Source of the DNA: Planctomycetota bacterium
GTDB lineage: Bacteria > Planctomycetota > UBA11346
Reading direction: 5' to 3'
Assembly: GCA_038231435.1 (NCBI GenBank)
Contig: JBBRLJ010000027.1
Span: forward strand, 14,517-78,516
DNA: 64,000 bases
Shown here piece after piece: positions 9,412-30,009 of the stretch; position 1 is the first letter of the stretch, and each line of letters starts with the position of its first letter. Under the pieces are notes generated by a model. That model was not told the origin of the DNA and did not search any database. It saw nothing but the letters and a program-made list of their open reading frames with translations. The position numbers and the translations under genes were made by a program.

Positions 9412-10830
9412 CTATTTGATCTCGACCGGCGCGGTGAGCATGCATTTCATGCCGGCCTTCTTGCCGACCTTCACGCCCTTCCACGGCGCGGAAGAGAACG
9501 AGGCCTCGGTGAACGTCGCTGCGTCGGCGACGTCGCGGATCTGCAGCCAGTAATCCCTCAGCGTGGTCGCATCCGCTCCCGCCGCCCAGGTCAGAGGCGG
9601 AGCCAAGGTTGGACTCAGCACGTATCCCGGAGCTCCGACCGCGAAATAGCAGGAGCGGTTGTATTGGTACTCCTTGCGCGCGCTGCGCAGCAGCAGATCG
9701 CGCCGGTTCTGGCCATCGAAGGTGCGGACGTAGCGCTCAGGCTGGAACATCGCGTAGACCACCACCAGCGGATGACCCCAGGCGTCGTTCCATGGCTGCG
9801 ATCCGCTGCGCCCGTTGCGGTACTCGCCCTCGCCGACGGCTCCGCGCTGCAGCACGCCCGCGGCCTGCAGCAGCTGGATGCTCTTGAGCGGCGACATCCA
9901 GCCTTCATCGAAGGGCATCGGTGCGTTGGCGTTCTTCAGCGGATCCGCACCGACGATGTTGATGGCCAGATCGCTGGAGCGGTGGGCGCCGGTGAGCGTG
10001 ACGCCGTCGGTCTGGTTCGGATCGGAGGCGGTCCAATCCCAGATCCGGCTGGTGGCGGGCGCGCCGGTGGTGACCCAGTTGTTCAGCACCGCCTCGGGCG
10101 GGTTCTCCTTGGTCAGGCCGGCGCTGGTGGTCTTCTCGGTGATCTTCGTGGTCGTCGGGCCCGATGGCAGGTTGGGATCGCAGATCGCACCATCGACGCG
10201 CAGCCCAGGCTTCCCCCAGGGGAAGCGCAGGATCGGCGGATTCACGCCAGGACTGGGAAGATCCCAATCGGTTTCCGGCCACTGCGTCGGCCATGCGCCC
10301 GGCTGGCCGGCCGCCATGTAGTCGGCCGCTGACGCCCAGGTCGCGGCGGGCGGCGCGGGTGGCTTGGCGTCGTACACGTCATCGATCAGGCGGCGCCACA
10401 AGGTGATGCGCTCGGGATTCGCGCTGTAGTTGGTCGCATCGAAAGGTGCCTGCGACCACGCCGGGGTGGCGATGGGCGGAACCCATGTCCACTGCATGAA
10501 CCCTGGAGGTTTCGCGCACAGGCTGGTGATCGAGTAGTTGTTGATGTTGGAGATCTGGGCGAAATACGGAACGCCGCCGAGATCGTACGCGATCTGCAGG
10601 CCCACGCCGGGACTGCCATCCGACGCCGCGTATTGCGTCAGACCATTGAGGATGTTCTGCATGCGCGCCATGGTGGCGTGCTCCCTGGCGCGTTCCTTGA
10701 TCATGGTCACGCACGAGATCGTCAGCCCCACCAGCACCATGACGATGGCGACGACGATCAGCAGTTCGAGCAGGCTGAAGCCGCGGCGCTGGCGCACGGC
10801 GTCGCCACGTTGATTCCGGTCAGGTGGCAT
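9412..10830 (-). CDS. Prepilin-type protein, GspG-like with insertion (cassette 2, gene 6)
   Basis: RRG|FSLLELLIVVAIVMVLVG; T.ARMQNILNGL; NDAWGHPLVV. Confidence 0.87.
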   Translation of the reverse strand: MPPDRNQRGDAVRQRRGFSLLELLIVVAIVMVLVGLTISCVTMIKERAREHATMARMQNILNGLTQYAASDGSPGVGLQIAYDLGGVPYFAQISNINNYSITSLCAKPPGFMQWTWVPPIATPAWSQAPFDATNYSANPERITLWRRLIDDVYDAKPPAPPAATWASAADYMAAGQPGAWPTQWPETDWDLPSPGVNPPILRFPWGKPGLRVDGAICDPNLPSGPTTTKITEKTTSAGLTKENPPEAVLNNWVTTGAPATSRIWDWTASDPNQTDGVTLTGAHRSSDLAINIVGADPLKNANAPMPFDEGWMSPLKSIQLLQAAGVLQRGAVGEGEYRNGRSGSQPWNDAWGHPLVVVYAMFQPERYVRTFDGQNRRDLLLRSARKEYQYNRSCYFAVGAPGYVLSPTLAPPLTWAAGADATTLRDYWLQIRDVADAATFTEASFSSAPWKGVKVGKKAGMKCMLTAPVEIK

Positions 10831-10837
10831 CACCGAT

Positions 10838-12364
10838 TCACCAGTTGGCCGGTTCGTGGTCGAGACGCTGGACCCACTTGAAATTGCCGCCGTAGGTCTT
10901 GGGCGCGCTGTACCTCAGCCCGTCGGCGTATCCGCCTTCGCGCAGGTCCGACATCTGGTCCGAATTGAATTCGTCCGGAACCAGGTTCTTGCTGCGATCC
11001 CAGCCCGGCCAGTCCTTGGGTTTCCAGAACGGGATCGGATTGCTCGACGCGTCGAAGCGCTGGTAGACGTGGGTGCCGCCCCACGAATAGCGCTCGGGCA
11101 CGAAGCCTCCGCCCTGGAGCGCAGACCATTCGACGCGGTACCACTGCACCTGCGTCGCGGTGCGCATGGCCTTGAAGCCAGACTCGCCGATGTTGGCGAA
11201 GGTCGGCGAGTTCGCCGCGAACTCCTGGCCCTTGGTGACCGATCCAGGCAGCGAGTTCGCCGCCTCCCACGCGGTCAGGTCGGCCTGGTCCCAGAAACGG
11301 TAGCCGCGAGTCGGCCCCACGCCGCAGGCGATGATGAAGACGTTCCAGTTCTTCAGCGCGGGATTCTTCTTGTCGTACATCAGCACGTAATCGTACGCTG
11401 GCACGCCATCGCCATCGTGATCGGCCTGGACCTCGCGGTAGATGCGGAACCAGCACAGGTTCTCGGTGCCGTCGCGCACCTCGAGCTGCACCGCGAGCGG
11501 AGGTCCGCCAGAGCCGTCGTCGATCAGGTGTCCCCAGTCACCTACCGCACCGACCGACGCGACCTTGCCGGAGATGAAGGTCGGCTTGCCCGAGCCGGGA
11601 TACGCGGGATTCGACCATTCGTCGGCGGCGGGCTGCGGATCGAGCACGCCGCTCGCGCCATTGGCGGGATCGAAGATGCCGTCCGTCCACGCCTGCGGCC
11701 AGTTGCGCGTCGTCGGCAGCCCAGTGAGCGCGTCGATGCCGGCCGCGCCGGGCAGTGGCGCCGTGACCCATGGCGCCTCCCAGCCTGGAGCGCCGTACGC
11801 GGGAGCGCCCGCTGGCACGCCGACCGGATTGTACGACACCTTCAGCAGCGTCGCGTACGGCGGCTGCTCGGGCACCGCCATCGGACAGCGGATCACCGAA
11901 CCCGGGCACGGCCAGGTGCGCAGGTTGCTCGCCGGCAGCTGCAGATCGGTGGGCGACGGCAGGTACGGGCCCCAGCTGCCGCTCCACCAGCTGGGCGCGG
12001 GAGCGGCGGTGGTCCCGGCGGCGCGCATCGGGCGCGGTCCGAGCGAGCCGTCGCGGATGTCCGTCCAGCCGTAGGTCTCCTGGCCCCAGCCCAGCCGCGA
12101 TTCCTCCTGCAGGAACATCATGCCGGCGTGCAGCATCAGGCGGGCCTGGCCCTCGCCGACGATCGCGCGCGTCTCCTGGCTGTCGGCGCGCATGCGCAGC
12201 ATGAAGCTCATGGCCACGCCCAGCAGCACCATCGACAATCCGGTGACGATGATCAGCACCACGCCGCCGCGCGTGCGCGGGACGCGCAGGCGGGCACCGG
12301 CGAGGACGACCTCGTCCGTCGGCAAGCGCCACGATGCGGAGAATTCACGGGATTCACGGAACAT
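10838..12364 (-). CDS. PilX/GspK-like pilin lacking Glu5 (cassette 2, gene 5)
   Basis: RG|GVVLIIVTGLSMVLLGVAMSF...QARLMLHAG; DHDGDG Ca-binding-type motif. Confidence 0.8.
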   Translation of the reverse strand: MFRESREFSASWRLPTDEVVLAGARLRVPRTRGGVVLIIVTGLSMVLLGVAMSFMLRMRADSQETRAIVGEGQARLMLHAGMMFLQEESRLGWGQETYGWTDIRDGSLGPRPMRAAGTTAAPAPSWWSGSWGPYLPSPTDLQLPASNLRTWPCPGSVIRCPMAVPEQPPYATLLKVSYNPVGVPAGAPAYGAPGWEAPWVTAPLPGAAGIDALTGLPTTRNWPQAWTDGIFDPANGASGVLDPQPAADEWSNPAYPGSGKPTFISGKVASVGAVGDWGHLIDDGSGGPPLAVQLEVRDGTENLCWFRIYREVQADHDGDGVPAYDYVLMYDKKNPALKNWNVFIIACGVGPTRGYRFWDQADLTAWEAANSLPGSVTKGQEFAANSPTFANIGESGFKAMRTATQVQWYRVEWSALQGGGFVPERYSWGGTHVYQRFDASSNPIPFWKPKDWPGWDRSKNLVPDEFNSDQMSDLREGGYADGLRYSAPKTYGGNFKWVQRLDHEPANW

Positions 12365-14387
12365 AATAGGGGCCTGGGGTCGGTCGCGTGTCGTAGAAAT
12401 CGCCGATCGGCAGATCGTTCCGCGCGCCGTTGCCAGGCGTCGGCGCGTAGCGGTGCCCCGGCAGGGTCGGACCGGCGGGTTGGAACTGCAGGGCGGGCGA
12501 ATACAGGCGCCAGTGCTGGCGCGCGCCGCGGAAGGTGGTTCCGAAGGGCATGCAGCACAGTTCGGTCTTCTTGCCCGAGATCGGATCGTCGATGGTCACG
12601 CGGATCACCGTCAGATCCTGCGAGCCAGCGACGCGCCCATAGCGCATGATGCCGGTCTTCATCCCCGGCGCCTGCTTGGGCTTCGACTCGGTGTCGATGG
12701 CCCTGGGCAGCGCGTACCATTTGGTCTTCGGCGCCATCGAGGTTCCGACCGGGAAGTCCGCAGGCTCGGCGCGCTCGAAGTCGGTGGTGTTGTACGGCAG
12801 CCACACGGTGGTCGACATCGACGACGAATCCACGCGCGTGAGATCGCCGCGTTCGGTGACGGTGTGGAAATGGTTCTGCGAGCCTTCGAGGAGCTGGGCC
12901 TCGTATTCCGAGCCCTGCCCGGCGTCGTAGTCGCCGGTCCCCAGGAAGACCACGAATGGGTTCTTGTACTGGAAGTGGTCGAAATTGTAGTTGTACCAGT
13001 TGGAAATGAAATCCGCGCCCTGCGCCGGCCAGCATGGGCGCAGCGGGATCGCCTCGATGGCGCGCGCGTTCTTGCCGCCGTTGGCGGGCGATGCGATGAA
13101 GCGCTCGCCCATGCGCACGGCGAGATCGCATTCGCCGAAATTGAAGCAGTAGTCGCCATCGAGGTAGTATTTGCAGTACTCGCCCTGGTCGGGAGCACCG
13201 CTGGTTCCCGGGGTCCCGCCGTTGACGCGGTAGTTGCACGGTGCGATCGGGACGGTGTTGACGTCGGGCGTCTGGCCCTGGCGATCGCCGAAGAGCAGCG
13301 GCGTGCCCGGGGTCATGTACTGGTAGGCGCCGAAATAGTTCAGGCGCTGCCAGATGCCCGTCCACATCAGCGGCTGGTACATGCCCCAGCCGTTGTCGAT
13401 CGGCGCGTCCACCGGATTCGGCAGTGTCTCGACGGTGGCAACCAGCGGATTCGCGTATTCGAACTGCTTGACCACGCTGCCGGTGGTTGGCGTTCCGCCC
13501 TGGGCGACGGCGACTCCGGGCGGCGTGTTCGCGGGATAGCGCGCGGTGGTGTTCGCGACGTCGCGCATGTCGCTGGCGCTGACCAGTGCATAGTCTCCGA
13601 TCGCCAGGCGCGGGTAGCCCTGGCGGTAGCCGCCGTAGTGCTTCACCCGGTAGGGATTGGCGACGCGGCGCTCGGGCACGCGCATCGCCTGGACCGGTAC
13701 GCGAGAGATAGACCTGGGATCGCTGGCGAGCAGCGCGTTGGGGTTCGGCACGAAGTCGTTGCGGTTGTAGGCATCCGTCCAGTGGTCATCGTGGATGATC
13801 TCGTCCCAATCCGGAGTGGTCGGCGACGCGGCGTTGTAGTAGTCGGCACCGCGCGCCGGATCATTGACGTCGCGCTCGTTGGTGTCGGTGCGCGGCGCGA
13901 AGCGCACCGGCTGGAATGGCCGGCGCCAGCCGCTCTCGACCAGGCTGTTTTCATGGACCAGCACGCGCACGTCCGTCGCGCCCACGAAGCCCGCGTCGTT
14001 GGTTGAATCAACGGTGTCGTCGGTCGCCGGATTGTCGCGCTGGGTCTGCTGGCGCATGAAGCCCTTGTTGTAGGGCGCCTGGTCGTCGGCGTGCGAATGC
14101 CAGTAATCGACATCCAGCATGGCCACCTGGAATCCAGCGCGCAGCAGGCCGTTCTCGGTGCTCAGCACGTTCGCCGCGGCGATCGCCTTGGTCACCATGC
14201 GGAAGCACGACACCGCGGTGAGCACGATGACCGCGGACAACGCCACGCCGATCATCATCTCGATCAGGGTGAAGCCCTGACGCGAACCCACCGGACGCGC
14301 GACGATCCGCGCGAGGGACGGCACCACGCGGCCGAGGCACGCGCGGTACCGCTTGGCGGGGTCAATTGCCATGGTGTCAATTGCCAT
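12354..14387 (-). CDS. Prepilin-type protein, PilW/GspJ-like, ~675 aa (cassette 2, gene 4); alternative start 14372
   Basis: RQG|FTLIEMMIGVALSAVIVLTAVSCF; overlaps neighbouring genes. Confidence 0.85.
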   Translation of the reverse strand: MAIDTMAIDPAKRYRACLGRVVPSLARIVARPVGSRQGFTLIEMMIGVALSAVIVLTAVSCFRMVTKAIAAANVLSTENGLLRAGFQVAMLDVDYWHSHADDQAPYNKGFMRQQTQRDNPATDDTVDSTNDAGFVGATDVRVLVHENSLVESGWRRPFQPVRFAPRTDTNERDVNDPARGADYYNAASPTTPDWDEIIHDDHWTDAYNRNDFVPNPNALLASDPRSISRVPVQAMRVPERRVANPYRVKHYGGYRQGYPRLAIGDYALVSASDMRDVANTTARYPANTPPGVAVAQGGTPTTGSVVKQFEYANPLVATVETLPNPVDAPIDNGWGMYQPLMWTGIWQRLNYFGAYQYMTPGTPLLFGDRQGQTPDVNTVPIAPCNYRVNGGTPGTSGAPDQGEYCKYYLDGDYCFNFGECDLAVRMGERFIASPANGGKNARAIEAIPLRPCWPAQGADFISNWYNYNFDHFQYKNPFVVFLGTGDYDAGQGSEYEAQLLEGSQNHFHTVTERGDLTRVDSSSMSTTVWLPYNTTDFERAEPADFPVGTSMAPKTKWYALPRAIDTESKPKQAPGMKTGIMRYGRVAGSQDLTVIRVTIDDPISGKKTELCCMPFGTTFRGARQHWRLYSPALQFQPAGPTLPGHRYAPTPGNGARNDLPIGDFYDTRPTPGPYYVP
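14361..14387. repeat. 12-bp direct repeat (period 15) spanning the stop/start junction
   Basis: GTCAATTGCCAT at 14361-14372 and 14376-14387; encodes MAIDTMAIDP. Confidence 0.85.
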
Positions 14388-17300
14388 AGTGAAGCCGCAG
14401 GACCGGGTCGTAATAGAGCATGTCCGACACGTGCACGGCCTTCATGCGCGATCCCCTGGGAACCGCGCCGAGATCGAGCACGCCGTTGCCATTGCGGTCG
14501 GCTCCCCAGTGCCCGAGGTGCTCGTCGGCGGTCACCCGCTGGCCGTCGGTGGGCAACGGGTCGGCGGTGGTCGGCGTCGGCAGGACGTTGGACGTCGGCG
14601 CATCGTGCAGCCCGGGGCCAGGCTGTCCGAGCGCGCCGACCCAGTTCTGGTAGAGGAAGCCAGCGCTCTCGCCGCCGACCACATCGACGTAGCGCCGCGA
14701 GCGCTCGGGGCTGGTCCACATGTACAGCGATTCGGGATGCCCGAGCAGCGGGCTGTGCCCGTACTCGACGAACGGCGTGATCGCGTCGTACGCCGGGCCG
14801 GGATTTCCCGGACGCAGGTAGCGGCCGTGCTTGGCCCAGTCGATCGGCGCGCTCGGGGCGGTCTCGGCGTCCTCGTACTCCTTCCAGTCCACCGACCAGA
14901 AGGTCAGCGAGCGGCAGCGGTGGAACGCGCGGAACGGCCGGTCCAGCCAATAGTGCTTCTGGTCGGTGTCGGCCGCGGGTTGGGCCAGCTCGTGGTTGTA
15001 AGCCATCTGCTCGAAATAGTCGGAGCGTTCGCGCCCGGGCCCGAAATGCGAGAAGCCGTGCTTGCCGTTCGCCGGAGCGTTGGGGTAGAACCAGGTGTCC
15101 GGAACCGGATTGCTGGCGGTCATCCAACGGTAGTAGGACTCCGACGCCGCGCTGCCCGCTGCCCTGGCGGGATTCAGCGGCGTGCGCACCGCGTTGTTTC
15201 CACCCGCGGGATTGGCCGCGTCGTAGAACAGGTCGTACATCGCCAGCGGCTTGTCCATCATGGTCTGATGGTTCGCCGGCTTCGGAGCGCCGAGATCGTT
15301 CGGCATCTCGGCGGCGTAGGCGGCCGCCCACTGCATGCACATTTCGTAGACCTTGCGCGCGAACAGCAGGTCGTGCTGGTTGGCGACGCGGCGCACCAGG
15401 GTGCCGCGGTGCAGCGACACCGGATCGAGATCTGCGCCGACATTCTCGCGCGCGTCGTTGAACTGCAGCGGGTAGCTCGGCAGCGCCGGGGTGACGTACA
15501 CGTAGATGAAGTTCGTGGTGTCCGACGGGAAGGTCGCGCCGAGCTGGTGCGGCGTTACCGGTCCACCGTTCTCCTGGTAGGTGCCGCCGGCCTCGACCTT
15601 GAAGACATGGAAGGTCTGGCACTTGTACTGCAGGTTCGGGTACTTGGTGTTGGTGTTGGTGCCCGCCCACCACCAGCCGGGAGCGTCGGGGTCGTAGCGG
15701 CCATCCCACACGTTGTGGGTATCGTTCTGGTCCCAGATGTCGGGCATCGAGCCGCACCACAGGTTCGGGCAGTTCTCGCCGCCCTTGCCGTACTTGTACC
15801 ACCACTGCATGTAGCTGGTCTGGAAGAGCAGCTCATCGCCAGCGTACACCAGCCACTTGTGGTTGGTGTCGTTGCAGAGCTTGATCTTGCTGAAGGTAGC
15901 GCCCGCGGTCCCGGGAGGCGTGTCCTCGGCCACCACCATGGCGTCCTTGGTGATGCCCTGGCCGATGACGTTGTGCGAGACCGGCCACGGCTGGACCTTG
16001 CCCGCCGGCACATTGCCGGGGAACAGGTAGCCTTCGTACGGCCACGGGTACGCCCACGGCTTGACGCTCGGATCGATGATGCTTGCGTCCCAGGTCGGCC
16101 CGACCGGGGGCGAGGCCGCCGGATCGTCGGTGCAATAGAGGCTGACCTCGTTGGTCTGCGGCTCGTTGTGCCGCGCGTACGTCCAGTTCAGGCATTCCCA
16201 GGACACGCGCATGTTGTCGACGACGCCCTTGTACGAGCCGGTGGCGATGTTCTCGCCGAACGGCGGGGCGTAGCCAGTGACCATCATGGCGGCGTGCGCG
16301 AGGTAGCTCAGAGCCAGGACCTGCGCCGGATGCGGCGGCCAATCGGCCGCGTCGAGATCCTTCGGCATGATGACCTGGAACTTGTCGAGCTCGGTCGGCG
16401 GATATTCATAGCGGTCGCAGTCGACCATGGTGCCGCCCTCGGCGTCGTTCACGAGCGCGGCGGCATCGGGATTCTTGCGCAGGATCGCGGCGGCGCTCGC
16501 CGGCGGATTGGTCGGCATGACCGCTTGCCAGAGATCGATGGCGCGGTCGCGATAGTTGGCGCGCATCTCGTAGGTCGCGGGCGGATTGGCGGTCTGGGGG
16601 GCGCGCGCCTTCCAGGTGAAATTGCGCAGGTTCAGGTGCTCCTGCGTCTCGCTCGGATCGTTGGCGTCGGGGCTGATGCCGGCGTTGGGCGCGCGGCTGT
16701 GATTCGCCATGTACCCGCCCGGCGACGCGATCGGGATGTTGGCGAAGACGTTCGCGTAGTCGGCGTAGCTCACCGGCCATTTCTTCGGCATCCACGGCTT
16801 CTTGTGCAGCTCCATGTAATTGATGTTCTGCAGACCCTCGTACGACGGGAAATCCGGATTCGCGAGCAGCGCGCGGATCGGCAGCCAACCCGAGCGGTGA
16901 TAGGCGTTGGTGCCGGCGGCGACCGCCGCCAGCGGATCGGAATCGAACGGATATCCGATGGCCGCGGCCGCCGGGCCGTAGACGCTGCGCGGCTGCGCCA
17001 CCGCCGCCTCGTCCCCACCCGAGATGCGCTGGAAACAGCACCAGGCCCAGTCCGCGCCGTGCGACGCGTACAACGGTTCGTTCGCCGGTGAGATGCCATT
17101 GCCGGCCTTCCACAGATTGCCCATCTTGTTCGCGAAGAACCGCCAGTTGCGGCCCTGCGAAAATCCATTGCCGAAGTATTTCGCGTTGCCCGCGTTGGCG
17201 CCATTCGGGTTGGTGTAGTCGTCGTTCGCGTTCGGCTCGTCGACCGGATTGTTGTTGCGCGGATCCCCTGCCGGCAGGCCGGGCCACTTGTCCTGCTCCT

Positions 17301-18414
17301 GGCCCGGATGCATCGGCCTGCCGAACACCACCGGCTCGTAGCGGCCGTGGCCACCGTCGTCGAACGAAAGCATCGCCAGGCACCACGACCAGTCGCCGGT
17401 GGTGCCGCCCGAGACTGATTGGCCGGAAACGTGGAAGCCCGACCACGGCAGGCCGCCGTACACCGCGCCCGTGGGCGTCGGGCCGAAGGTACCGGGGTTG
17501 GGCCACTGGTCCTGCCAGTTGCCGCTCGCGGGCCACGACTGAAATCCGCCGCGATTGTTGCCGCACAGCCAAGTCGGCTGGCTGCCCCAGCCGATCCAGC
17601 CCGCGACCTGGGGATACCAATAGCCGGACTGGCCGCCGGCGTCGTAGTTGTAGCCCGCTGGCGACGGAGCGATCGGCGTGGTGTCGTACAGCGGCATGGC
17701 GCCGCCTTCGTTGCCGCCGACTGCCACCATCCTGCGCGTCTCGCGACCGCGCGCCTGCATGCCCAGCCATTCGGGCGGGAATGGATAGACCTCGTACCAC
17801 GGCAGGCTCTCCGCCGGATCCGATGACAGCGCGTTCTGCTGCGGCAGGCTGGTCACCGCGAACACCAGCTTCTGCACCTCGGGCGCCGCGGTGACCTGCA
17901 TGGTCTTATCCATCGCCGCGCCCTGGTTCAGGCCCATCATGAAATTCGGGTCCGGATAATAGAGCATGCCGCCCTGGTCGAGGACCTTCTGCACCTCGTC
18001 GTGGTCGGAGTCCAGGCGCCTGGCGATCTCCATCGGCACCGGCAAGACGCCGGTGAGCCAGCCCGCCTGCTGTTCGAGGTTGGGCTGGAATGGCGAGGCG
18101 TGCACGAGCTGATCGCGGATCTGTCCTGCCCAGCCGGTGAACGGTGCCGCGGCGGTGCTGGTCGCGTCTGTGCCGGGGATGCCGTCGTAGCGCGGCGCCA
18201 GTCGCGACACGCCCTCGAACTTGTCGACGGGCGTGTGGAAATTATTGATCAGGGTCATCGCGGTCGAGGCCGCGTACATCTGGCTGCGCGCCATCTGCTG
18301 CGCCTTGATCCCGACCGGGAGCAGGGCGAGCGTAGCGAGGATCGCGGTCGTCAAGATCAGCAGGCTGATCATCACCTCGAACAAGGTGAAGCCCAGCGCG
18401 GCGACCCGCGTCAT
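14377..18414 (-). CDS. Giant (~1345 aa) PilV/GspI-like prepilin-type protein, putative adhesin (cassette 2, gene 3)
   Basis: MTRVAALG|FTLFEVMISLLILTTAILATLALLPVGIKAQQMAR...A; long W/Y/N/G/P-rich body; C-terminal DRNGNGVLD. Confidence 0.87.
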   Translation of the reverse strand: MTRVAALGFTLFEVMISLLILTTAILATLALLPVGIKAQQMARSQMYAASTAMTLINNFHTPVDKFEGVSRLAPRYDGIPGTDATSTAAAPFTGWAGQIRDQLVHASPFQPNLEQQAGWLTGVLPVPMEIARRLDSDHDEVQKVLDQGGMLYYPDPNFMMGLNQGAAMDKTMQVTAAPEVQKLVFAVTSLPQQNALSSDPAESLPWYEVYPFPPEWLGMQARGRETRRMVAVGGNEGGAMPLYDTTPIAPSPAGYNYDAGGQSGYWYPQVAGWIGWGSQPTWLCGNNRGGFQSWPASGNWQDQWPNPGTFGPTPTGAVYGGLPWSGFHVSGQSVSGGTTGDWSWCLAMLSFDDGGHGRYEPVVFGRPMHPGQEQDKWPGLPAGDPRNNNPVDEPNANDDYTNPNGANAGNAKYFGNGFSQGRNWRFFANKMGNLWKAGNGISPANEPLYASHGADWAWCCFQRISGGDEAAVAQPRSVYGPAAAAIGYPFDSDPLAAVAAGTNAYHRSGWLPIRALLANPDFPSYEGLQNINYMELHKKPWMPKKWPVSYADYANVFANIPIASPGGYMANHSRAPNAGISPDANDPSETQEHLNLRNFTWKARAPQTANPPATYEMRANYRDRAIDLWQAVMPTNPPASAAAILRKNPDAAALVNDAEGGTMVDCDRYEYPPTELDKFQVIMPKDLDAADWPPHPAQVLALSYLAHAAMMVTGYAPPFGENIATGSYKGVVDNMRVSWECLNWTYARHNEPQTNEVSLYCTDDPAASPPVGPTWDASIIDPSVKPWAYPWPYEGYLFPGNVPAGKVQPWPVSHNVIGQGITKDAMVVAEDTPPGTAGATFSKIKLCNDTNHKWLVYAGDELLFQTSYMQWWYKYGKGGENCPNLWCGSMPDIWDQNDTHNVWDGRYDPDAPGWWWAGTNTNTKYPNLQYKCQTFHVFKVEAGGTYQENGGPVTPHQLGATFPSDTTNFIYVYVTPALPSYPLQFNDARENVGADLDPVSLHRGTLVRRVANQHDLLFARKVYEMCMQWAAAYAAEMPNDLGAPKPANHQTMMDKPLAMYDLFYDAANPAGGNNAVRTPLNPARAAGSAASESYYRWMTASNPVPDTWFYPNAPANGKHGFSHFGPGRERSDYFEQMAYNHELAQPAADTDQKHYWLDRPFRAFHRCRSLTFWSVDWKEYEDAETAPSAPIDWAKHGRYLRPGNPGPAYDAITPFVEYGHSPLLGHPESLYMWTSPERSRRYVDVVGGESAGFLYQNWVGALGQPGPGLHDAPTSNVLPTPTTADPLPTDGQRVTADEHLGHWGADRNGNGVLDLGAVPRGSRMKAVHVSDMLYYDPVLRLHYGN

Positions 18415-18415
18415 C

Positions 18416-19123
18416 TCACAATTCCTGGGAGACCGTGAATCCCGCGTGGTAGATGGCGAAGGACGAAGCATAGCCGTGGCGCGATGGTCCCACGGAATAG
18501 TCCTGCGTCCACAGCTGGATCCTCGGGCAGACGGTCGCCGTGAGCGCCGCGTCGCTGGCGACGCCCATGCTGCATGGCGGGGAGACCTGTCCGCGTCCCA
18601 TGGCGACGTTGTCGGGCGACAGCGGCAGGCCGGTGCCGTACTGCGCGTAGATGATGATGGTCTGATCGGCGGTGGTGGGCGCGTCGGTGTTGGAGCCGCC
18701 CGCCGGAGTGCTGGCCACGATCACATTGCGGTTGAACTTGAAGAACGCCGCGGCGGTGCCCGACGCGCTGTAGGTAGACTGGTCCGAGGGATCCTCGCCG
18801 GCCATGAAATACTTGGGAGTGCCCGTGGCGACATTGTCGAAGATCAGCGCGACCGAGGCCTGCTGGCCGGCGGACTGCCTGATGGCGATGCCGAAATGAT
18901 AGGGTGAGGCGCCGGCGGGGATCGCCGTGGTCATCGCCAGGATGCGCGCCTGGCGCCAGCACATGGAGATGTCATTCACCGCGGAATTGATGTTCCCGTG
19001 GCGGATCGAGGGCAGCACGGTTGGGACGGCGATGCCCATGAGGGTCATCATGATGCCGATCACCATCAGCAGCTCGATGGCGGTGAAGGCGGCGCGCGAA
19101 GCCTGGGTGCGTTGATTATTCAT
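18416..19123 (-). CDS. Prepilin-type protein, GspH/FimT-like (cassette 2, gene 2)
   Basis: MNNQRTQASRAA|FTAIELLMVIGIMMTLMGIAVP; SAVNDISMCWRQARILAM. Confidence 0.88.
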   Translation of the reverse strand: MNNQRTQASRAAFTAIELLMVIGIMMTLMGIAVPTVLPSIRHGNINSAVNDISMCWRQARILAMTTAIPAGASPYHFGIAIRQSAGQQASVALIFDNVATGTPKYFMAGEDPSDQSTYSASGTAAAFFKFNRNVIVASTPAGGSNTDAPTTADQTIIIYAQYGTGLPLSPDNVAMGRGQVSPPCSMGVASDAALTATVCPRIQLWTQDYSVGPSRHGYASSFAIYHAGFTVSQEL

Positions 19124-19781
19124 CGTTGTTCTTCCAGCTGCAGAGGTCGTCCGAGTCGATGGGACCGCCGAGATTCTTGTTCCGCCCGCTCGACCAGACG
19201 CCAAACGACATCGCGCCGTACACGTGAGCGGCATAGGCGATGTGCAGGGGCCGGTGCCAGCGGTCGATGACCTGGCGCAGGGCGTTCACCTGGCCGGTGG
19301 CGAGCGGGATGCCGCTCATGTCGATGAAGCCGGTGTACGAGGGCTTGGCGCGGCTGGCGAGGGTCGTGCCGGCGGCGTAGAGGCGCGGATCGCCGTCGAT
19401 CATCGCCGGGTCGGCGAGCTGATCGGCGTCACCAGCGAGCGGGGCGATGGTGCCCATGGCCCAAGCCGGGTAGAGGTTGCCGTCGGCGCCGGTCACCGCG
19501 GTCACGTGGACGTCTTGGATCTTGGCGGCGACGGCCTGCACCAGCTGGGTGGTCGCGCTGATGTCGGCCTTGGCGCGCAGGCTGGCCATGACCGGGTAGG
19601 ACATGCCGGCAAGGGCGAGGATCACCGCGATCACCACCAGCATCTCGAGGATGGTGAAGCCGGGGCGCGCGCCGACGAGAGCGGGCAGCGCCAGCACTGC
19701 CACGACACCCACGAGCGAACGGTGGCCGCCGTGCGCGATCGCTTGAGCCGAGCCTGCAGTGACGTGGTCGCCGAGAACCAT
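19116..19781 (-). CDS. Prepilin-type protein, GspG-like (cassette 2, gene 1); start uncertain
   Basis: RPG|FTILEMLVVIAVILALAGMSYP; VIDRWHRPL; FGVWSSG...DDLCSW. Confidence 0.85.
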   Translation of the reverse strand: MVLGDHVTAGSAQAIAHGGHRSLVGVVAVLALPALVGARPGFTILEMLVVIAVILALAGMSYPVMASLRAKADISATTQLVQAVAAKIQDVHVTAVTGADGNLYPAWAMGTIAPLAGDADQLADPAMIDGDPRLYAAGTTLASRAKPSYTGFIDMSGIPLATGQVNALRQVIDRWHRPLHIAYAAHVYGAMSFGVWSSGRNKNLGGPIDSDDLCSWKNNDE

Positions 19782-20061
19782 GGAAGCGTCTCCGACACTC
19801 ATTCCCGGGGACCCCCCCGCGCAGGCCGCTCGATCGGATCGACGGTTGATCTTGTGTGACGCACCGACGCATCGCATTTTCCTTAACAATCTGATGTAAC
19901 TGTTGTTATGATATTTTATAAGATTCTCCTACCGGCCCGATCGCAGTCGCTTGAGGGTCTGAGTGGAGGACGAGAACGAGCCTTGGCAGGGCTCACGCTC
20001 TCCGACTCCCCGCCCGGTCGTGCAGTCGAGACGGCGTTTCACGCGAGCCTCGGCGAGACTC

Positions 20062-22563
20062 ATGGAATCCAGGCATCGCATCGCTGCGTGCGGCCTAGGC
20101 TCCGCGCCCATGCGGATCGTTGTCATCGTGCTGATGATCGTGCTCGCCCTCGCGGCGACCTCGCTGATCGCGTTCATCGTCGCCAAGCACGATCAGTTAT
20201 CGACGCACGCGCGCGACACCGTGCCGCGGTCGGTGCGCGAGCCGGATGCGCATCCGCCGAAGCCGCCTACGACGCCGCTCGACGCGACGCGTCCATCCCA
20301 GAAATCCCCTGCGCTGGAGAGCGCGACCGACGAACGCTCACGCCTGGACAAGGTGGTGTGGGCGACCGAGGTGAAGGCCCAGGAATACGAAGAGGCGTTC
20401 GTCGCCCTGTGGGATGCGATGCGCGCGAAAGGCGAGGACCAGCACGAACTGCTGGCGACTTTCCCGTTCACCGAGTTGCTGATCAAGCACTTCGGCGCAC
20501 CAGAATCGCATCGCTGGGTCGAGATCGCGCGCATGGACGGCGCCGCCAAGCCGCTGGACCAGAGGGCCTGGCTCGACCTGGTGTCGGGATTCGCGCGCGA
20601 TGGCTACCGGCTGAAATACGTGGAATTCCACCATTCCGCGTTCGATCTCGAGCCCTCGGGCGTGGCCCGTTCGAAGATGTCGCTCAAGCTCTTCATCATC
20701 CACCCGCAGCGCAAGGAACGCCACGTCATCAGCGGATCCCTGCGCGTCCTGTGGTCGGACGCGGTCGACGCCAAGGGCATGCATATCGCCAGATCGATCG
20801 ATGCGACGGAGATGACGCTCACCAGCCGCACCGGCGACGATGCCTTCGCCGAGGAGTTCGTGACGATTCCGGAGAAGCACACGGCGCCATTCCAGTCGGC
20901 GCTCGAGCCGACGCTGGTCTACGACCTCGATGGCGACGGCAAGGACGACATCGTGCTGCCACGCTGGAACAAGGTCTACATCAACCAGGGCTCTTCCGGA
21001 CATGTGGCCTTCGACCTGAGGCCATTGGCGGCTCATCCGCTCGTGGAGGTTCCGGGCGGGCTCCTCATCACCACCGGCGTTCTCGCCGACGTCACTGGCG
21101 ACGGCAACGTCGACCTCGTGCTCGCCGGCATCGATCTGCCACCGATGCTGTTCGAAGGCGGTCCGGGTGGAACCTTCCCCACCGCGCCCCATCCCATCGT
21201 CGATCTGCCGAAGGAGGCATTCAGGCTGCCGATGGGCATGACCGCCGGCGATGTCGATGGAGATGGCAGGGCCGACCTGTGGATCGGGCAGTACCGCCGG
21301 CCGTTCGATGACGCGTCGATGCCGAATCCCTATTGGGACGCCAACGATGGCTATCCGTCCTTCCTGCTCATCAACAACGGCGACGGTACCTTCCGCGACG
21401 CGACTGCGGCGGCGGGTCTGTCGGCCAAGCGCCATCGCCGGAACTACAGCGCGTCGTTCGTCGACCTCGACGACGACGGCCGGCTCGATCTGGTGACGGT
21501 GAACGATTTCTCGGGCGTCGACATCTTCCGCAATCTCGGCAAGGGCGTCTTCGCGGACGCCACCGACGAGACCGTGGACCAGCGCCACAGCTACGGTATG
21601 TCGCACGCCTTCGCTGATTTCAACGGCGACGGCAGGCTCGACCTGTTCGTCGCGGGCATGGGCTCGACCACCGCCCGCCGGCTGGAATACATGAAACTCG
21701 GACGGGCCGACTTCCCAGAGCATCAGAAGATGCGCATGCCGATGGGTTACGGCAACCGCATGTACCTCGGCGGCGCCGACCACCGCTACCAGCAGGCCCC
21801 GTTCAACGACCAGGTCGCGCGCACCGGCTGGTCGTGGGGCTGCACCGCGCTCGACGTCGACAACACCGGAAACATCGACCTGTTCGTGAACAACGGCTTC
21901 ATGAGCCGCAAGACCGCCAAGGACTACTGCTCGCGGTGGTGGACCCACGACATCTACCAGGCGAGCGAACCGGCGAAGCCAGACATGCTCGCGACCGTGA
22001 TGAACGAGCTCGAGCAGGGTTCCGGCAGCTCGTGGAACGGCTTCGAGCACAAGGCCCTGCTGATGAATGAAGGCGGCACCTCCTTCATCGACACCGCCTT
22101 CGCGATGAACCTCGCCTACGAGTGGGACGCGCGCGCCGCGGTCAGCGCCGACTTCGACGGCGACGGCATGGTCGACGTGATGACGGTGAACTCCCAGTAC
22201 AACAGCGCTTTCCTGCCCATCGATCCGGTGCTGCGCGTATTCCGCAACCAGATGCCCAACACCAACCACTGGATCGGGGTGCGCCTGAGGGAAGAGCCCG
22301 GTCACTGCGCGATGGGCGCAAAGATCACCGTGCGCGCTGGCGGCCGTGAGCATGTCGCCGTGCTGGTGTCGGGCGATTCCTTCCGTTGCCAGCATCCGCT
22401 CTGCAAGCATGTCGGCCTCGGTCTTGCCGCGAGCGTCGACGCCGTCGAGGTCCGGTGGATCGATGGAGCGAAACGCGTCATCGAGCACCCCGCCATCGAT
22501 CGCGAGCTGACGATCAGCGCTGGGCCGGATGCGCCCCCGGCGGCTACTTCGACGGATCGCTGA
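20062..22563 (+). CDS. CRTAC1-family protein: N-terminal TM/signal, FG-GAP (VCBS-like) beta-propeller repeats, C-terminal ASPIC/UnbV domain
   Basis: Repeated D.DGDG..D motifs (YDLDGDGKDD, DVDGDGRADL, DFNGDGRLDL); GWSWG; HWIGVRL...GAKITV...HVGLG...VEVRW. Confidence 0.9.
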   Translation: MESRHRIAACGLGSAPMRIVVIVLMIVLALAATSLIAFIVAKHDQLSTHARDTVPRSVREPDAHPPKPPTTPLDATRPSQKSPALESATDERSRLDKVVWATEVKAQEYEEAFVALWDAMRAKGEDQHELLATFPFTELLIKHFGAPESHRWVEIARMDGAAKPLDQRAWLDLVSGFARDGYRLKYVEFHHSAFDLEPSGVARSKMSLKLFIIHPQRKERHVISGSLRVLWSDAVDAKGMHIARSIDATEMTLTSRTGDDAFAEEFVTIPEKHTAPFQSALEPTLVYDLDGDGKDDIVLPRWNKVYINQGSSGHVAFDLRPLAAHPLVEVPGGLLITTGVLADVTGDGNVDLVLAGIDLPPMLFEGGPGGTFPTAPHPIVDLPKEAFRLPMGMTAGDVDGDGRADLWIGQYRRPFDDASMPNPYWDANDGYPSFLLINNGDGTFRDATAAAGLSAKRHRRNYSASFVDLDDDGRLDLVTVNDFSGVDIFRNLGKGVFADATDETVDQRHSYGMSHAFADFNGDGRLDLFVAGMGSTTARRLEYMKLGRADFPEHQKMRMPMGYGNRMYLGGADHRYQQAPFNDQVARTGWSWGCTALDVDNTGNIDLFVNNGFMSRKTAKDYCSRWWTHDIYQASEPAKPDMLATVMNELEQGSGSSWNGFEHKALLMNEGGTSFIDTAFAMNLAYEWDARAAVSADFDGDGMVDVMTVNSQYNSAFLPIDPVLRVFRNQMPNTNHWIGVRLREEPGHCAMGAKITVRAGGREHVAVLVSGDSFRCQHPLCKHVGLGLAASVDAVEVRWIDGAKRVIEHPAIDRELTISAGPDAPPAATSTDR

Positions 22564-25500
22564 CCGGCGGCGTCGCGACGTCGGGTTCGGTGACCTGCAA
22601 CACCGCGCCGGGCTTGAACGGCCCCTCGACCCGCTGCGCTCGGTTGCCCGGCCACACCACCGTCACCGCCGTCACCTCGCCATCGGCTCCGAGCCCGAAC
22701 AGCGGCGCGGTCTCGTCCTGCGACAGGTAGTTCGAACCGCAGCTCACCTGCTTCGACTGCGAGCCCCCGTCCGCGCGGGTGACGGTGATCACCGCGCCGA
22801 TGCCGTAACGATTGCTGCGCACACCATGCAGCCTGACCTTGATCCAGCGATTGGCGTTGGCACAGGAGTTGGCGAGCAGCGTCGGCGGAGCATCGAAATT
22901 GCTCACCACCAGGTCGACGCGGCCAGTTCCCGTCAAGTCCGCAGCCACGGCGCCGCGGCTGTTGCCGCGGTAGGACTCGTCCCCGGCCTCGTCCACATGG
23001 AAGAACTTCGCGCCGTGGCGGATGAACATCTGCTTGGCCTGGTCGGCCGCTGGCGTCTGGTCCACCCAGCCGTTGCTCAGCCACATGTCGTCGTCGCCGT
23101 CGTCGTCGTAGTCGAGGAAGTTGCCGCTCCACGACCAGCCGCGGTCGCCTGGCTCGAACATCTCGTCATCCACCGGCGTGAAACGCGCGCCGTGATCGTT
23201 GCGGAAGAGCTTGTTGCCGGCGATGTAGAACGTGGATTTGAGAATGCGTTCGTTGATGTTGATCTGCGAATCCGCGCGCGGGAACACGAAGCCGATGCTT
23301 TTCGAGAACATGTCGATCTGGGTGATGTAGATGTCCATCCAGCCATCGCCGTCGACATCGACCACGCTGGCGTTCATCGAGCTGCCGCGGTCGTCGACGC
23401 CGTAGCGGTGGCCGCATTCCTCGAACGTGCCATCGCCGCGGTTGAGGAACAGCTCGCTGCGTCCGTAGTCGTTCGCCACGAACAGATCCATGCGCCCGTC
23501 CCGGTTGGCGTCGATGGCGGCGGTGGCGAGCGTCCAGCCGGTGCTGCCGACTCCCGCGCGATCCGTGACGTCGGCGAAGACCCCGCCGCCCTGGTTGTGG
23601 AACAGCCGGTTCTTCACGCCGTTGCGACCATCGAGGGTCGGCTTGCTGCCGCCGTAGTGGCCGACATAGCAGTCGAGCAGCCCGTCGCCGTCGTAGTCGA
23701 GGAACACGGCATCATGGGCGTTCGCATCGGTGACGATGCCGCAGGTGGCGGTGACATCGGAGAACCGACCATCAGCCTCCTGATGGAAGAGCCGCGACGG
23801 CTTCTCGGAATGCACGATGAAGAGATCGAGTCGCCCATCATTGTCGTAATCGACGAACAGGGCGTGATGGGCGTCGGCGCAGTCGCTGTCGGTGATCCCG
23901 AGCGCCTCTGTCCGGTCCTCGAAGTGCCGCCCGCCGAGATTGCGCAGCAGGCGGTTGCCGCCATCGCCTGGCAGGAACAGGTCGGGGAGCCCGTCCCCAT
24001 CCGCGTCTCCGACCGCTACTCCCGAACCCATGAAGTCGACGAGCCTGCCCGGGCCGTCCTTAGTGATCGCGACGCGCACCGCGCCCGCTCTGGCTGGGAA
24101 TCCCGCGGATGCGCTGGCGTTGCGGAACAGCGGCAAGGGGTAGGCAGCCGCCACCGATGCCTTCGCCTGCATGTCGGCCGCGGTCCATCCCGCCGGTGGC
24201 GCGGCGTTGACCACGAACTGAGATCCGTTCAGGATCTTCTCGCAGATGTCGGTACCGACGACCCGCTTGCCCTGATTCTGCGCGACCGCGTCGCACTCCT
24301 TCATGAAGAAGAAGGCCAGCTCAGAGAGGCGGTCTGCGATCATCTCCAGCGCGAACGGATCGGCGGGCACCGCGTTGGGCGCGTCCCAGGCCTTCTTCAT
24401 CAAGGTCCAGTGCAGGGTCGTGTCGCGCAACGCGTCGAGCTCCCAATCGAGCAGCACGGTGCTGCGCCGCTTGTCCGGCACCTGCTGTGATGGCAGCCCC
24501 ATGATGTCCACGGTGACGTCGCCATTGGGGCCGATGGTGCGCGGAAAGAGCTCGTCGAGCACGTTACGGGTCCACGCCAGGGTGGCGTAGCTGTTCGCCG
24601 GAACGCCCGTGAGGTCGGGCGTGAGCCCGTTGATCGAGGCAGAGAAGGCATTGCGTCGCATCGGCTGCACGCCGTAGGCCAGGAAGCGCGCGTAGCGCTC
24701 CAGCCGTTGCTCGAGTTCGCGGAACGAATCGTGATCGAAAGGCACTGTCATCATGCGATTGACGAGCTCGAGCTGGCGCGCATCGGCATCAGCCGCGTCC
24801 TTCCAGACCTTGCCGTTCCACACCCGCAGGGCGGCTATCTTGCCGGCAATCGTCCGGCGCGTCAGCGCGAGCAGATCGGGGTCAACTGCGCGCGATCCAA
24901 CCGCGACGGCCGGCAATGCCGTGCCCGCACCTTCGGACAGCTTGCTGGATGCCTGGTCAGGGCTCCGGGAATAGCGCGGAGCCGCTTCCGCGAATGCATC
25001 GCGCACGTCCCCCGCCTCGATGCGCAGGTGCCCACGCGACTTCGCCAGGTCGCCGCTCGCCGTCAGGAAGGCGGTGGTGATCTGCGTGGCGACGGCGGCG
25101 AGATGGTTCATGCCGCCCACCGACAGCGGCGAGATATCCGGATCCCGGCCTTCGAACAATCCGGTTCCAGTGATGGCGTCGGCGATGATGGCGTAGAGGT
25201 AGCGTTTGTTCTCGGTCACGCGGTGATAATCGCGGCTCATCACCGACTGCACGGGATCGCCGGAAAAGACCGGCTCCGCAGCCGTCATCAAGGCGACGGC
25301 CTTGCGCACGTCCTCGGGCACCACCGCGTCGATCGCGGCCGCATGGATGATGCCCTGGTCGGCGTGTTCGGAGGCGGCGCGCCACACCTGATAGACCAGG
25401 GTCTTGCACGCCTCGATCTTCAGCATGGCGATCTCGTCGGACATGGGCTTGCCCGCGAAATGCTGGTCCATCATCCGTACCGTGGTCCAACAGGTCGCGT

Positions 25501-25702
25501 CCTTGCCGGATTCCTGGCCTTCGACAACTCCCATCAGGCGATCGAGGCCAGACTTGAGTTCGGATGTGCGTTCAGCGACTGGATTCGCCGCGAGCGGCGC
25601 GGTGCGCGTCACGGGTGGGGCGTCCGCCTGACGCACGTGCGTCATCAGCATGACGCTCGCCGCGGCGGCCAGGATGAAGAGCGCTACCGCGCCCTTCCTC
25701 AT
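22544..25702 (-). CDS. Exported CRTAC1-family FG-GAP/ASPIC-UnbV protein with a ~450-aa N-terminal all-helical, histone-fold-like region
   Basis: Signal-like N-terminus MRKGAVALFILAAAASV; FG-GAP motifs (GDADGDGLPDL, DYDNDGRLDL, DYDGDGLLD); SNRYGIGAVITV...YLSQ...LFGLG...VVWPG; N-region LAAVATQITTAFLTASGDLAKSRGHLRIEAGDVRDA. Confidence 0.88.
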   Translation of the reverse strand: MRKGAVALFILAAAASVMLMTHVRQADAPPVTRTAPLAANPVAERTSELKSGLDRLMGVVEGQESGKDATCWTTVRMMDQHFAGKPMSDEIAMLKIEACKTLVYQVWRAASEHADQGIIHAAAIDAVVPEDVRKAVALMTAAEPVFSGDPVQSVMSRDYHRVTENKRYLYAIIADAITGTGLFEGRDPDISPLSVGGMNHLAAVATQITTAFLTASGDLAKSRGHLRIEAGDVRDAFAEAAPRYSRSPDQASSKLSEGAGTALPAVAVGSRAVDPDLLALTRRTIAGKIAALRVWNGKVWKDAADADARQLELVNRMMTVPFDHDSFRELEQRLERYARFLAYGVQPMRRNAFSASINGLTPDLTGVPANSYATLAWTRNVLDELFPRTIGPNGDVTVDIMGLPSQQVPDKRRSTVLLDWELDALRDTTLHWTLMKKAWDAPNAVPADPFALEMIADRLSELAFFFMKECDAVAQNQGKRVVGTDICEKILNGSQFVVNAAPPAGWTAADMQAKASVAAAYPLPLFRNASASAGFPARAGAVRVAITKDGPGRLVDFMGSGVAVGDADGDGLPDLFLPGDGGNRLLRNLGGRHFEDRTEALGITDSDCADAHHALFVDYDNDGRLDLFIVHSEKPSRLFHQEADGRFSDVTATCGIVTDANAHDAVFLDYDGDGLLDCYVGHYGGSKPTLDGRNGVKNRLFHNQGGGVFADVTDRAGVGSTGWTLATAAIDANRDGRMDLFVANDYGRSELFLNRGDGTFEECGHRYGVDDRGSSMNASVVDVDGDGWMDIYITQIDMFSKSIGFVFPRADSQININERILKSTFYIAGNKLFRNDHGARFTPVDDEMFEPGDRGWSWSGNFLDYDDDGDDDMWLSNGWVDQTPAADQAKQMFIRHGAKFFHVDEAGDESYRGNSRGAVAADLTGTGRVDLVVSNFDAPPTLLANSCANANRWIKVRLHGVRSNRYGIGAVITVTRADGGSQSKQVSCGSNYLSQDETAPLFGLGADGEVTAVTVVWPGNRAQRVEGPFKPGAVLQVTEPDVATPPVSDPSK

Positions 25703-25750: not shown

Positions 25751-26311
25751 TCAGGGACCAGTCTTGAGCGCAGGCATGGTGCCCTGCTCGGCGGACGGCG
25801 CGCCTGCCGAGAACGATGGCAGGCCCTGGGTCTCGACCACGGTGAGATCGGGCCTGACGTAGAAGCCGCGCGTGCCGATGGCGACGTCGTCCTCCGGGGT
25901 CGCTGAACCGGCGGCGGTGGTCGCCGCCTCGGGCCCCGCCTTCACCGTCGAGACCGCCGCGGCCTTGATCACCTTCAGGTAGATCCTCCAGGTGCCGACC
26001 GGCGCGTCCTTGGCGATGAGCTTGCCGGGATTCGCCCCCGGCGTCGCCATCGCGTGACCGCCGAGGAATTCCGCGCGCGGGTGGTCGAGTTCGAGCTTGG
26101 CCGGATACTTCGCCTTGGCGAAGGCGAGCGCGGCATCGATCGCCTCCTTGCGGTGGCGATCGCTGTCGAGCATCTCAGGCGGCGGCGGCGGCACGAGCGC
26201 GGGCGGATGCACCGCGACCGGCTTCGCGGCCTGCTGGCCGCAGCCAGCGCAGCCCGGAAGCGCCACGCAGGCGATGACCAGGCCGATCACGAGATGGCGG
26301 GCGGTGAGCAT
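25751..26311 (-). CDS. Hypothetical lipoprotein
   Basis: Hydrophobic N-terminus ending ALPGCAGC; Pro-rich linker; same strand and 48 bp upstream of the 22544-25702 gene. Confidence 0.6.
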   Translation of the reverse strand: MLTARHLVIGLVIACVALPGCAGCGQQAAKPVAVHPPALVPPPPPEMLDSDRHRKEAIDAALAFAKAKYPAKLELDHPRAEFLGGHAMATPGANPGKLIAKDAPVGTWRIYLKVIKAAAVSTVKAGPEAATTAAGSATPEDDVAIGTRGFYVRPDLTVVETQGLPSFSAGAPSAEQGTMPALKTGP

Positions 26312-28539: not shown

Positions 28540-28716
28540 GAAGCACCTCGACGGCACGCTACATGGCACTCATGCCCCCTGCCAGGGATGCCCGATGTGC
28601 GGCAGGATGCGAGCCGCGTACTTGTCCACTATCCGCCCATACGTAGGTTTCCGGCCCGACTCCTGCCGCCAGGCCCACGAGGCATGGCGCGCACGCATCC
28701 CAGACCCGGAGCATCC

Positions 28717-30009
28717 ATGCGCAGTCCCGCGCTTCCGCTCATCGCCCTCGTGCTCGTCCTGCCCAGCGGTTGCGGCAAGCCGGATGCACCCGCGCCGCAG
28801 ATGATGCCGCCTCCGCCGATGGTCGGCTCGGCGCGGCCGCTGAAGCAAGAGCTGCCGGTGGTGCGCGAGGTGACCGGCCGCCTGGAAGCCGTCCAGTCGG
28901 TCGAGCTGCGGCCGCGCGTGGGCGGCATGATCGAACACGTGCTGGTGAAGAACGGCGCCGAGGTCAAGGCGGGCGACGTGCTCGTCACCATCGACGAGAC
29001 GCCGCTGCGCATCACCGTCGCGCAGTCAGAGGCCGCGTTCGCCCGTTCGGAGACCGCGCTCGCGCTCGCGCGCCAACAGCACGAACGTGCACGCCAGCTG
29101 GTCGAGCAGCACGTCTCGCCGCAGCAGACGCTCGACGATCTGACCGCCGCGCTGCGCTCGGCGGAGGCCAACCGCGCCGAGAGCGCGGCGCTGCTCGACT
29201 CCGCGCGGCTGAACCTCAGCTACGCCAAGTTGACCGCGCCGATCGACGGGCGCATCGGTCAGATCCTGACCACCGAGGGCAATCTCGTCCAGGGCGGAGG
29301 CCCGGTGCCGGCGACGCTCATCACCTCGCTGGTGAGCCTCGATCCGATCGATGTGGTTGTCGACCTGGACGAGGCGACCTGGACCGTCGTCGGCGAACGC
29401 TTCCGCGCCGCGGGCGCGGCCGATGGCGCGCACGGTGCCGATCAGGTGCCGGTGGATCTGGGCATCCCTGGCGAAGCGGGCTATCCGCACCACGGCTACA
29501 TCGCCTACGCCGACAATCGCGTCGATCCGGCCAGTGGCTCGATCCGCGTCCACGCGCGGCTCAAGAATCCCGAGCGCGTGCTGACCCCTGGCGCGTTCGC
29601 GCGCGTGCGCGTCGAGATCGCGCCGCCGCGCCCGGTGCTGCTGATCAACGACCAGGCAGTGCAGAACCAGCTGGCCACCCGCTACGTCTTGGTGATCGGC
29701 GAGCACGGCGTCACCGAATTCCGCCCCGTGCAGCTCGGAGACCGCTACGGCGTGCTGCGCGTGGTGCTCTCTGGCGTCGGCCCTGAGGACACCATCGTGG
29801 TTAGCGGCTTGGCGAAGGTCTTCTTCCCGGGCATGCCGGTGAATCCGGTGCCGACCTCGATGGAGAGCCCGGCGGTGGTCGAAGCGCCCGCCGGCACCGA
29901 TGCCGGCAAGGGCGGCGGCGGCAAGGCCGCGCCTGGCGATGCGCAGGCCAAACCCGGCGCCCCTGGCGACAAGCCCGGAGACAAGCCGGCTGACGGGCAC
30001 GGGAAATGA
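28717..30009 (+). CDS. RND efflux periplasmic adaptor (MexE/AcrA-like lipoprotein)
   Basis: LVLPSGC lipobox; VELRPRVGG; V.AGDVLV.ID; LSYAKLTAPIDGRIG; DNRVDPASGSIRV; LTPGAFARV. Confidence 0.95.
   Translation: MRSPALPLIALVLVLPSGCGKPDAPAPQMMPPPPMVGSARPLKQELPVVREVTGRLEAVQSVELRPRVGGMIEHVLVKNGAEVKAGDVLVTIDETPLRITVAQSEAAFARSETALALARQQHERARQLVEQHVSPQQTLDDLTAALRSAEANRAESAALLDSARLNLSYAKLTAPIDGRIGQILTTEGNLVQGGGPVPATLITSLVSLDPIDVVVDLDEATWTVVGERFRAAGAADGAHGADQVPVDLGIPGEAGYPHHGYIAYADNRVDPASGSIRVHARLKNPERVLTPGAFARVRVEIAPPRPVLLINDQAVQNQLATRYVLVIGEHGVTEFRPVQLGDRYGVLRVVLSGVGPEDTIVVSGLAKVFFPGMPVNPVPTSMESPAVVEAPAGTDAGKGGGGKAAPGDAQAKPGAPGDKPGDKPADGHGK

Follow-up and report, generated by a model that had tools for sequence, protein, structure and literature searches.

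Histone folds have known roles as spools for DNA and as scaffolds, and one gene in a 64,000-nucleotide stretch of a Planctomycetota genome (contig JBBRLJ010000027.1 of assembly GCA_038231435.1, positions 14,517 to 78,516; hereafter the window) raises the question of what they would do outside the cell: it encodes a probably exported protein with four histone folds in front of a beta-propeller. An original prediction, made from the letters of the window, had proposed this architecture, with a role as a scaffold or in binding extracellular DNA or polyanions. Sequence comparisons establish the putative leader, the duplicated histone doublet and the propeller, and place the protein in a family with several hundred members. 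Our tentative reading, which leans on structural models, is that the two docked doublets form a predicted pocket round an invariant cysteine, Cys71, likely a thiol-dependent catalytic site acting on components of surface fibres or adhesins.

Four histone folds in two doublets

A Pfam scan of the histone-propeller protein finds six FG-GAP_3 stretches and UnbV_ASPIC, all in the C-terminal half, and no significant family in residues 45-511. The order of FG-GAP propeller and UnbV_ASPIC is that of the CRTAC1/ASPIC-UnbV family; the top Foldseek match of this half is murine CRTAC1 (9ETN), with E 2.5e-27 and a target template modelling (TM) score of 0.71, and the calcium-type Asp repeats of the propeller are conserved. 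What sets this protein apart from that family is the histone-fold module of 430 residues that precedes the propeller. The full-length model has a pLDDT (predicted local distance difference test) score of 91.1 and a predicted TM score of 0.88. In one near-branch relative (P0031), about 15 near-identical 13-residue repeats lie between the module and the propeller start. The leader has a basic N-terminal start followed by a hydrophobic core, and a comparable segment (Kyte-Doolittle mean of at least 2.0) is present in 44 of 51 relatives of the near branch and 105 of 127 of the far branch, with a lipobox-like pattern in 17 of these relatives. By this predicted leader the protein is likely exported, as first proposed; a cleaved peptide and an anchor both fit.

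The four segments singled out in the original prediction lie within about 10 bases of where it placed them, and the four histone-like units are real: they form a duplicated doublet within one chain, as doublet comparison (96% score for doublet 1, folds 1 and 2, against doublet 2, folds 3 and 4), models and alignments all bear out. In the model, each of the eight positions of loops L1 and L2 (87, 118-119, 193, 228, 322, 373, 447 and 482) bears a single-residue strand bridge; we infer that these bridges pair with each other. Folds 1 and 2 are modelled as the tandem intramolecular handshake of a double histone fold, a pairing that is almost certain; the predicted handshake of folds 3 and 4, where both bridges and handshake covariation are seen, is very probable. 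The clamp register of fold 2 was set by alignment with singlet histones, and fold 3, remodelled here, is regular in the far branch. Weak leads point the same way: the best PDB match in phmmer is an H2B chain (8UA7, E 0.052) at fold 2, ESM features, at low recognition, lead to archaeal histone-like clusters (0.90), relatives P0091 and P0164 give sub-threshold CBFD_NFYB_HMF matches at the fold 3 position, and sub-threshold histone matches pooled over relatives cover each of the four folds. DUF1931 (PF09123) gave no match for the query at E<=10, nor for 35 relatives at E<=0.5. Compared with known double histone folds (DUF1931 proteins 1WWI and 1R4V; Methanopyrus 1F1E), this protein has two doublets per chain and extra helices, and adds an export leader, an invariant Cys site and the fusion to a propeller.

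A full HMMER scan with the query yielded 109 representatives at E<=0.001, mostly of about 1000-1100 amino acids or contig fragments, and the far-branch query P0092 matched 695 proteins, 120 of them listed, its family spreading over Gammaproteobacteria, Bacteroidota, Verrucomicrobiota, Acidobacteriota and Myxococcota. Built from 62 near-branch N-domains, a profile matched all 120 listed far proteins (lowest score 75 bits) and none of their shuffled versions (highest 4.9 bits). Among ten relatives looked up, P0161 corresponds to A0A545TSM9 (Aliikangiella coralliicola) and P0185 to A0A5S9PUU4; the source data of Schwab et al. 2024 (PMC11390915) give both the label 'Beta-propeller', which occurs there 56 times, twice per accession, for 28 proteins. 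The query is homologous to both along its whole length, module and propeller in one chain (24-27% identity), and the near-branch profile matches them with E 7e-29 and 7e-39; the architecture is thus already catalogued, as had been suspected, and the protein diverges within a histone class that is listed but unstudied; it differs from the listed members by its separate branch, DATCW instead of DPKCY, and the remodelled third fold. The main text of PMC11390915 does not contain the word 'propeller', and the class line in its Supplementary Table 2 may mention four folds or export; the accessible text of that article, its bioRxiv version, PMC13088155, PMC10627809, PMC13520046 and PMC12758564 gives no function for the class.

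The genome under study holds a second copy on contig C11 (52% identity), and the gene is patchy, in 2 of 301 genomes of the phylum and 2 of 61 relatives, with this genome in both counts. Canonical singlet histones with RKTV motifs were seen in 3 of 251 host-phylum genomes (L134, L135 and L136).

An invariant cysteine and a polar residue set lost with it

The original prediction had missed the site around Cys71. An alignment of 310 module sequences comprises 296 with this cysteine, eight with another residue and six without the position. Where the cysteine is present, K288 and N296 are kept in 296/296 rows, D395 in 293/293, and R426 and D427 in 291/291; E64, R167 and E453 each vary once, and H431 is not invariant (283/291). 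The nearly invariant polar set is E64, D68, C71, K288, N296, D395, D423 and D427. In the Cys-less rows D68 survives in 1/7, D423 in 1/8, and N296 and D427 in 2/8, with W107, L213, P387, W432 and D448 kept in 8/8 and R167 in 7/8. Over 15 polar positions, 54% are kept without Cys71 and 95% with it; for 14 structural positions the figures are 83% and 89%. Since the positions were picked for conservation, the 95% is partly by construction, and the signal is the contrast inside the Cys-less rows.

On a FastTree tree of 115 sequences, which takes in every near-branch row and 21 far-branch ones, the eight Cys-less rows occupy five positions, and longer Cys-bearing branches retain the polar set. Tandem pairs of histone-propeller genes occur at L087:3187-7395 and L088:423-6629; the first copy at L088 lacks Cys71 and most of the invariant polar residues, stands beside an intact copy and, judged by its residues, is a natural inactive control. 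We think it likely that the polar set lost along with Cys71 is one functional site; the pattern resembles that of an active site or ligand site from which inactive offshoots have arisen, and is not proof of one.

Docking of the doublets, proposed chemistry and alternatives

Folded as separate chains, the two doublets of the protein were predicted to dock with an interaction score (ipSAE) of 0.88 against 0.00 for the best control, the ipSAE mark used being one that 116 of 157 solved complexes attain, as do 2 of 215 mismatched pairs; contact agreement in these runs was at least 93% and partner pLDDT at least 82. Doublet 1 contributes to the modelled seam its first helix, residues 64-77, L1, the start of helix alpha2, and alpha1 of fold 2, and doublet 2 contributes helix 275-296 and residues 371-379, 390-394, 419-426 and 446-457. 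The alpha1/L1 face that doublet 1 offers is the one that histones turn towards DNA. No residue of the alpha2 end or alpha3 of doublet 1 is in the predicted seam, and the nucleosomal four-helix bundle is not found there. Among the top 30 cross-doublet covarying pairs in 183 sequences outside the folding alignment, five, among them the listed contact I96-L375, fall in the seam (0.9 expected) and none in the four-helix-bundle surfaces (2.3 expected), in modest agreement with the prediction. The intramolecular pseudo-tetramer first envisaged is supported insofar as two doublets are predicted to pack within one chain; the modelled geometry does not support it. The extra helix and L1/L2 corner of doublet 2 probably cover the alpha1/L1 face of doublet 1, which, so covered, could not wrap DNA. 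The model places E64, D68, C71, R167, K288, D423, R426, D448 and E453 in the seam, with N296, D395 and D427 adjoining it; besides Cys71, the seam takes in eight of the 13 invariant residues listed, and four adjoin it.

The genes near relatives suggest what such a site might act on. In the best 80 loci out of 238 from far-branch genomes, an exported thioredoxin-DUF255 gene is present at 41, directly downstream at 37, a Peptidase_S74 fibre gene at 40 (in several phyla), and a giant immunoglobulin (Ig)-type adhesin at 25. Both DUF255 representatives tested also bear DsbD_N, and 37 of 38 long DUF255 neighbours have a C[HY]WC motif. The near-branch context consists of 45 metagenome loci, many short, only 14 with 3 kb on both sides; here Ig-domain and Omp85 genes recur instead. 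The shared theme of the neighbourhoods is surface fibres, and the thioredoxin link is mainly far-branch. The S74 fibre neighbours (L009, L014, L016, L033, L034, L037, L056 and others) share, across several phyla, a strongly conserved, unannotated head of about 170 residues with two cysteines directly after the signal peptide. Three Acidobacteriota (L067, L076 and L081; about 11.9-14.5 kb) have a gene with a hydrazine-synthase-alpha domain close to the locus, and CRTAC1-like genes beside hydrazine-synthase-alpha homologues are noted in the text of PMC12758564.

In the mechanism that we propose, two intramolecular histone doublets would dock over the usual DNA-binding face and enclose Cys71. We suggest, with caution, that Cys71 could be a nucleophile kept reduced by the exported thioredoxin-DUF255 protein, and the calcium-type propeller a docking platform; enzymes with Cys-Asp-Lys or Glu-Lys-Cys arrangements offer an analogy. 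The substrate might be the product of a neighbouring fibre, adhesin or pilin gene, the doubtful step of which we are least sure. Also doubtful is the proposal in its fullest form: an extracellular enzyme of four histone folds, its duplicated doublet closed over the ancestral DNA face, in which a putative cysteine site modifies or cross-links bacterial surface fibres and is fed by an exported thioredoxin relay.

Several observations weigh against this mechanism. Halves of one protein tend to pass complex prediction, so the value of the seam run is its residue list, and 25 of the top 30 covarying pairs lie outside the seam. H431 is outside the listed seam, the Cys-less row P0072 retains most of the polar set, and R167-E453, a predicted contact, looks like a structural salt bridge; a purely structural role is possible for polar residues that are invariant at a seam. 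As many as 42% of near-branch modules have a net positive charge, up to +47. DUF255 neighbours occur at only 3/45 near-branch loci and S74 or adhesin genes at 0/45; this genome (87.6% complete) has no S74 match, and its two DUF255 genes are unlinked to the histone-propeller gene.

The best-surviving alternative makes the module a rigid scaffold or adhesion domain without catalytic activity, in which a buried polar network locks the doublets, while the protein organises parts of a surface fibre or pilus. Such a role, possible as originally proposed, fits the position of most invariant residues in the seam, the neighbouring genes for structural surface proteins, and the use of histone folds as scaffolds in SAGA and Son of Sevenless (SOS); the SOS histone domain (1Q9C) differs in being a cytosolic, lipid-binding, eukaryotic single doublet. 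The Cys-less relatives, however, lose the polar set yet keep the core residues as well as R167 and D448, which suggests that the polar set is dispensable for the fold. To our knowledge, a lone invariant cysteine would also be unusual in an exported scaffold, and we place this explanation on the unlikely side. Distinctly unlikely is a metal or small-ligand site formed by Cys71 and nearby Asp, Glu, His and Asn residues, as in a sensor, chaperone or redox protein, to which the copper site at the H3-H3' interface is a loose analogy: the residue types suit a metal, the residues are lost together and a redox-sensitive thiol would go with the linked thioredoxin gene, but there is one Cys only, H431 is neither invariant nor in the listed seam, and invariant K288, R426 and R167 are better suited to an anionic substrate.

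Very improbable is the view, held in the original prediction, of the module as a histone-like pseudo-tetramer to which extracellular DNA or polyanions bind. The module's folds are genuine histone folds, strongly basic near-branch members exist and the doublet 2 face may be partly free, but fold 2 reads HLRxxxxD where singlet histones have RKTxxxxD, K/R at the RKT positions reaches at most about 30%, and basic L2 residues are not conserved in any fold. The query module is slightly acidic (48 K+R versus 57 D+E, net -9), median net charges are -4.5 in the near branch (n=52) and -9 in the far branch (n=129), and the DNA face of doublet 1 is predicted to be covered, with no nucleosomal bundle. Viral and eukaryotic histone quadruplets likewise have four folds per chain and, in the accessible text of PMC13520046, retain core-histone identity and DNA-binding residues; here neither is kept and the predicted packing is non-nucleosomal. 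It is highly improbable that only folds 1 and 2 are histone-like and the second half is another helical domain or the likeness convergent, given the 96% doublet comparison, the bridges and handshake covariation within doublet 2, the sub-threshold matches to every fold, and the ESM features of residues 270-500, which as a lead fall in histone clusters (0.85).

Neighbouring genes and significance

The 186-amino-acid gene upstream is probably co-transcribed with the histone-propeller gene; it has no Pfam match and weakly resembles the upstream gene of a close relative, L086 (pairwise E 1e-6). Members of the convergent CRTAC1-family partner's family also flank the C11 paralogue and the far-branch locus L082, and the partner's N-terminal domain (residues about 100-300), without a Pfam match, is common to two C11 genes and L082. 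Related pseudopilin cassettes occur in 7-9 copies in this genome (contigs C1, C7, C9, C11 twice, C12, C26 and C30); that in the window includes a giant of 1364 amino acids whose only Pfam family is the N-methyl motif. Each of the two histone-propeller copies has next to it a CRTAC1-family partner as well as a pseudopilin cassette, and a cassette likewise adjoins every one of the three partner genes; the copies, being related to each other, are not independent. Further upstream (26434-33152) lie a GH42 beta-galactosidase (Pfam) and an RND-type efflux pair (read from translations), which are ordinary.

Table 1. Features of the histone-propeller locus, in window coordinates
Feature	Position	Strand	Remarks
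Whole gene	22544..25702	-	1052 amino acids; leader, four-histone-fold module, CRTAC1-type propeller, ASPIC/UnbV domain
Hydrophobic leader, residues 1-21	25640..25702	-	Putative signal peptide or membrane anchor; highest 12-residue Kyte-Doolittle mean 2.62
Cys71 codon (TGT)	25490..25492	-	Sole family-wide conserved cysteine; 296/304 aligned rows having a residue there
Histone fold 1, residues 72-125	25328..25489	-	Helices 72-83, 89-111, 121-125; bridges 87, 118-119; alignment to 1WWI
Histone fold 2, residues 164-244	24971..25213	-	Clearest fold; H225...D232 at the place of the histone R-D clamp
Extra helix before doublet 2, residues 275-296	24815..24880	-	Bears invariant K288, N296; predicted across doublet 1
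Histone fold 3, residues 306-385	24548..24787	-	Remodelled: alpha2 short, loop of about 30 residues
D423-x2-R426-D427-x3-H431 motif	24410..24436	-	Invariant site, second half
Histone fold 4, residues 430-489	24236..24415	-	DPFA.E motif; covariation 338-459, 318-474, 382-458
FG-GAP beta-propeller and ASPIC/UnbV domain, residues 526-1038	22589..24127	-	Pfam; Foldseek
Upstream 186-amino-acid lipoprotein-like gene	25751..26311	-	48 bases ahead of the start
Convergent partner CRTAC1-family gene, 866 amino acids	19963..22563	+	N-terminal domain differs
Pseudopilin-like cassette	9412..19889	-	N_methyl and pilin matches

The non-nucleosomal seam is a prediction and the co-lost cysteine site a fact of the alignment; together they make the class testable, and a listed, unstudied histone class gains a testable mechanism that turns on one residue, Cys71, with natural Cys-less controls and cultured hosts, among them Aliikangiella coralliicola and Gilvimarinus. 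If the mechanism is true, a widespread exported four-fold family with a conserved cysteine pocket would extend the histone fold to surface chemistry, and would bear on the roles of bacterial CRTAC1-like propellers and DUF255 proteins.
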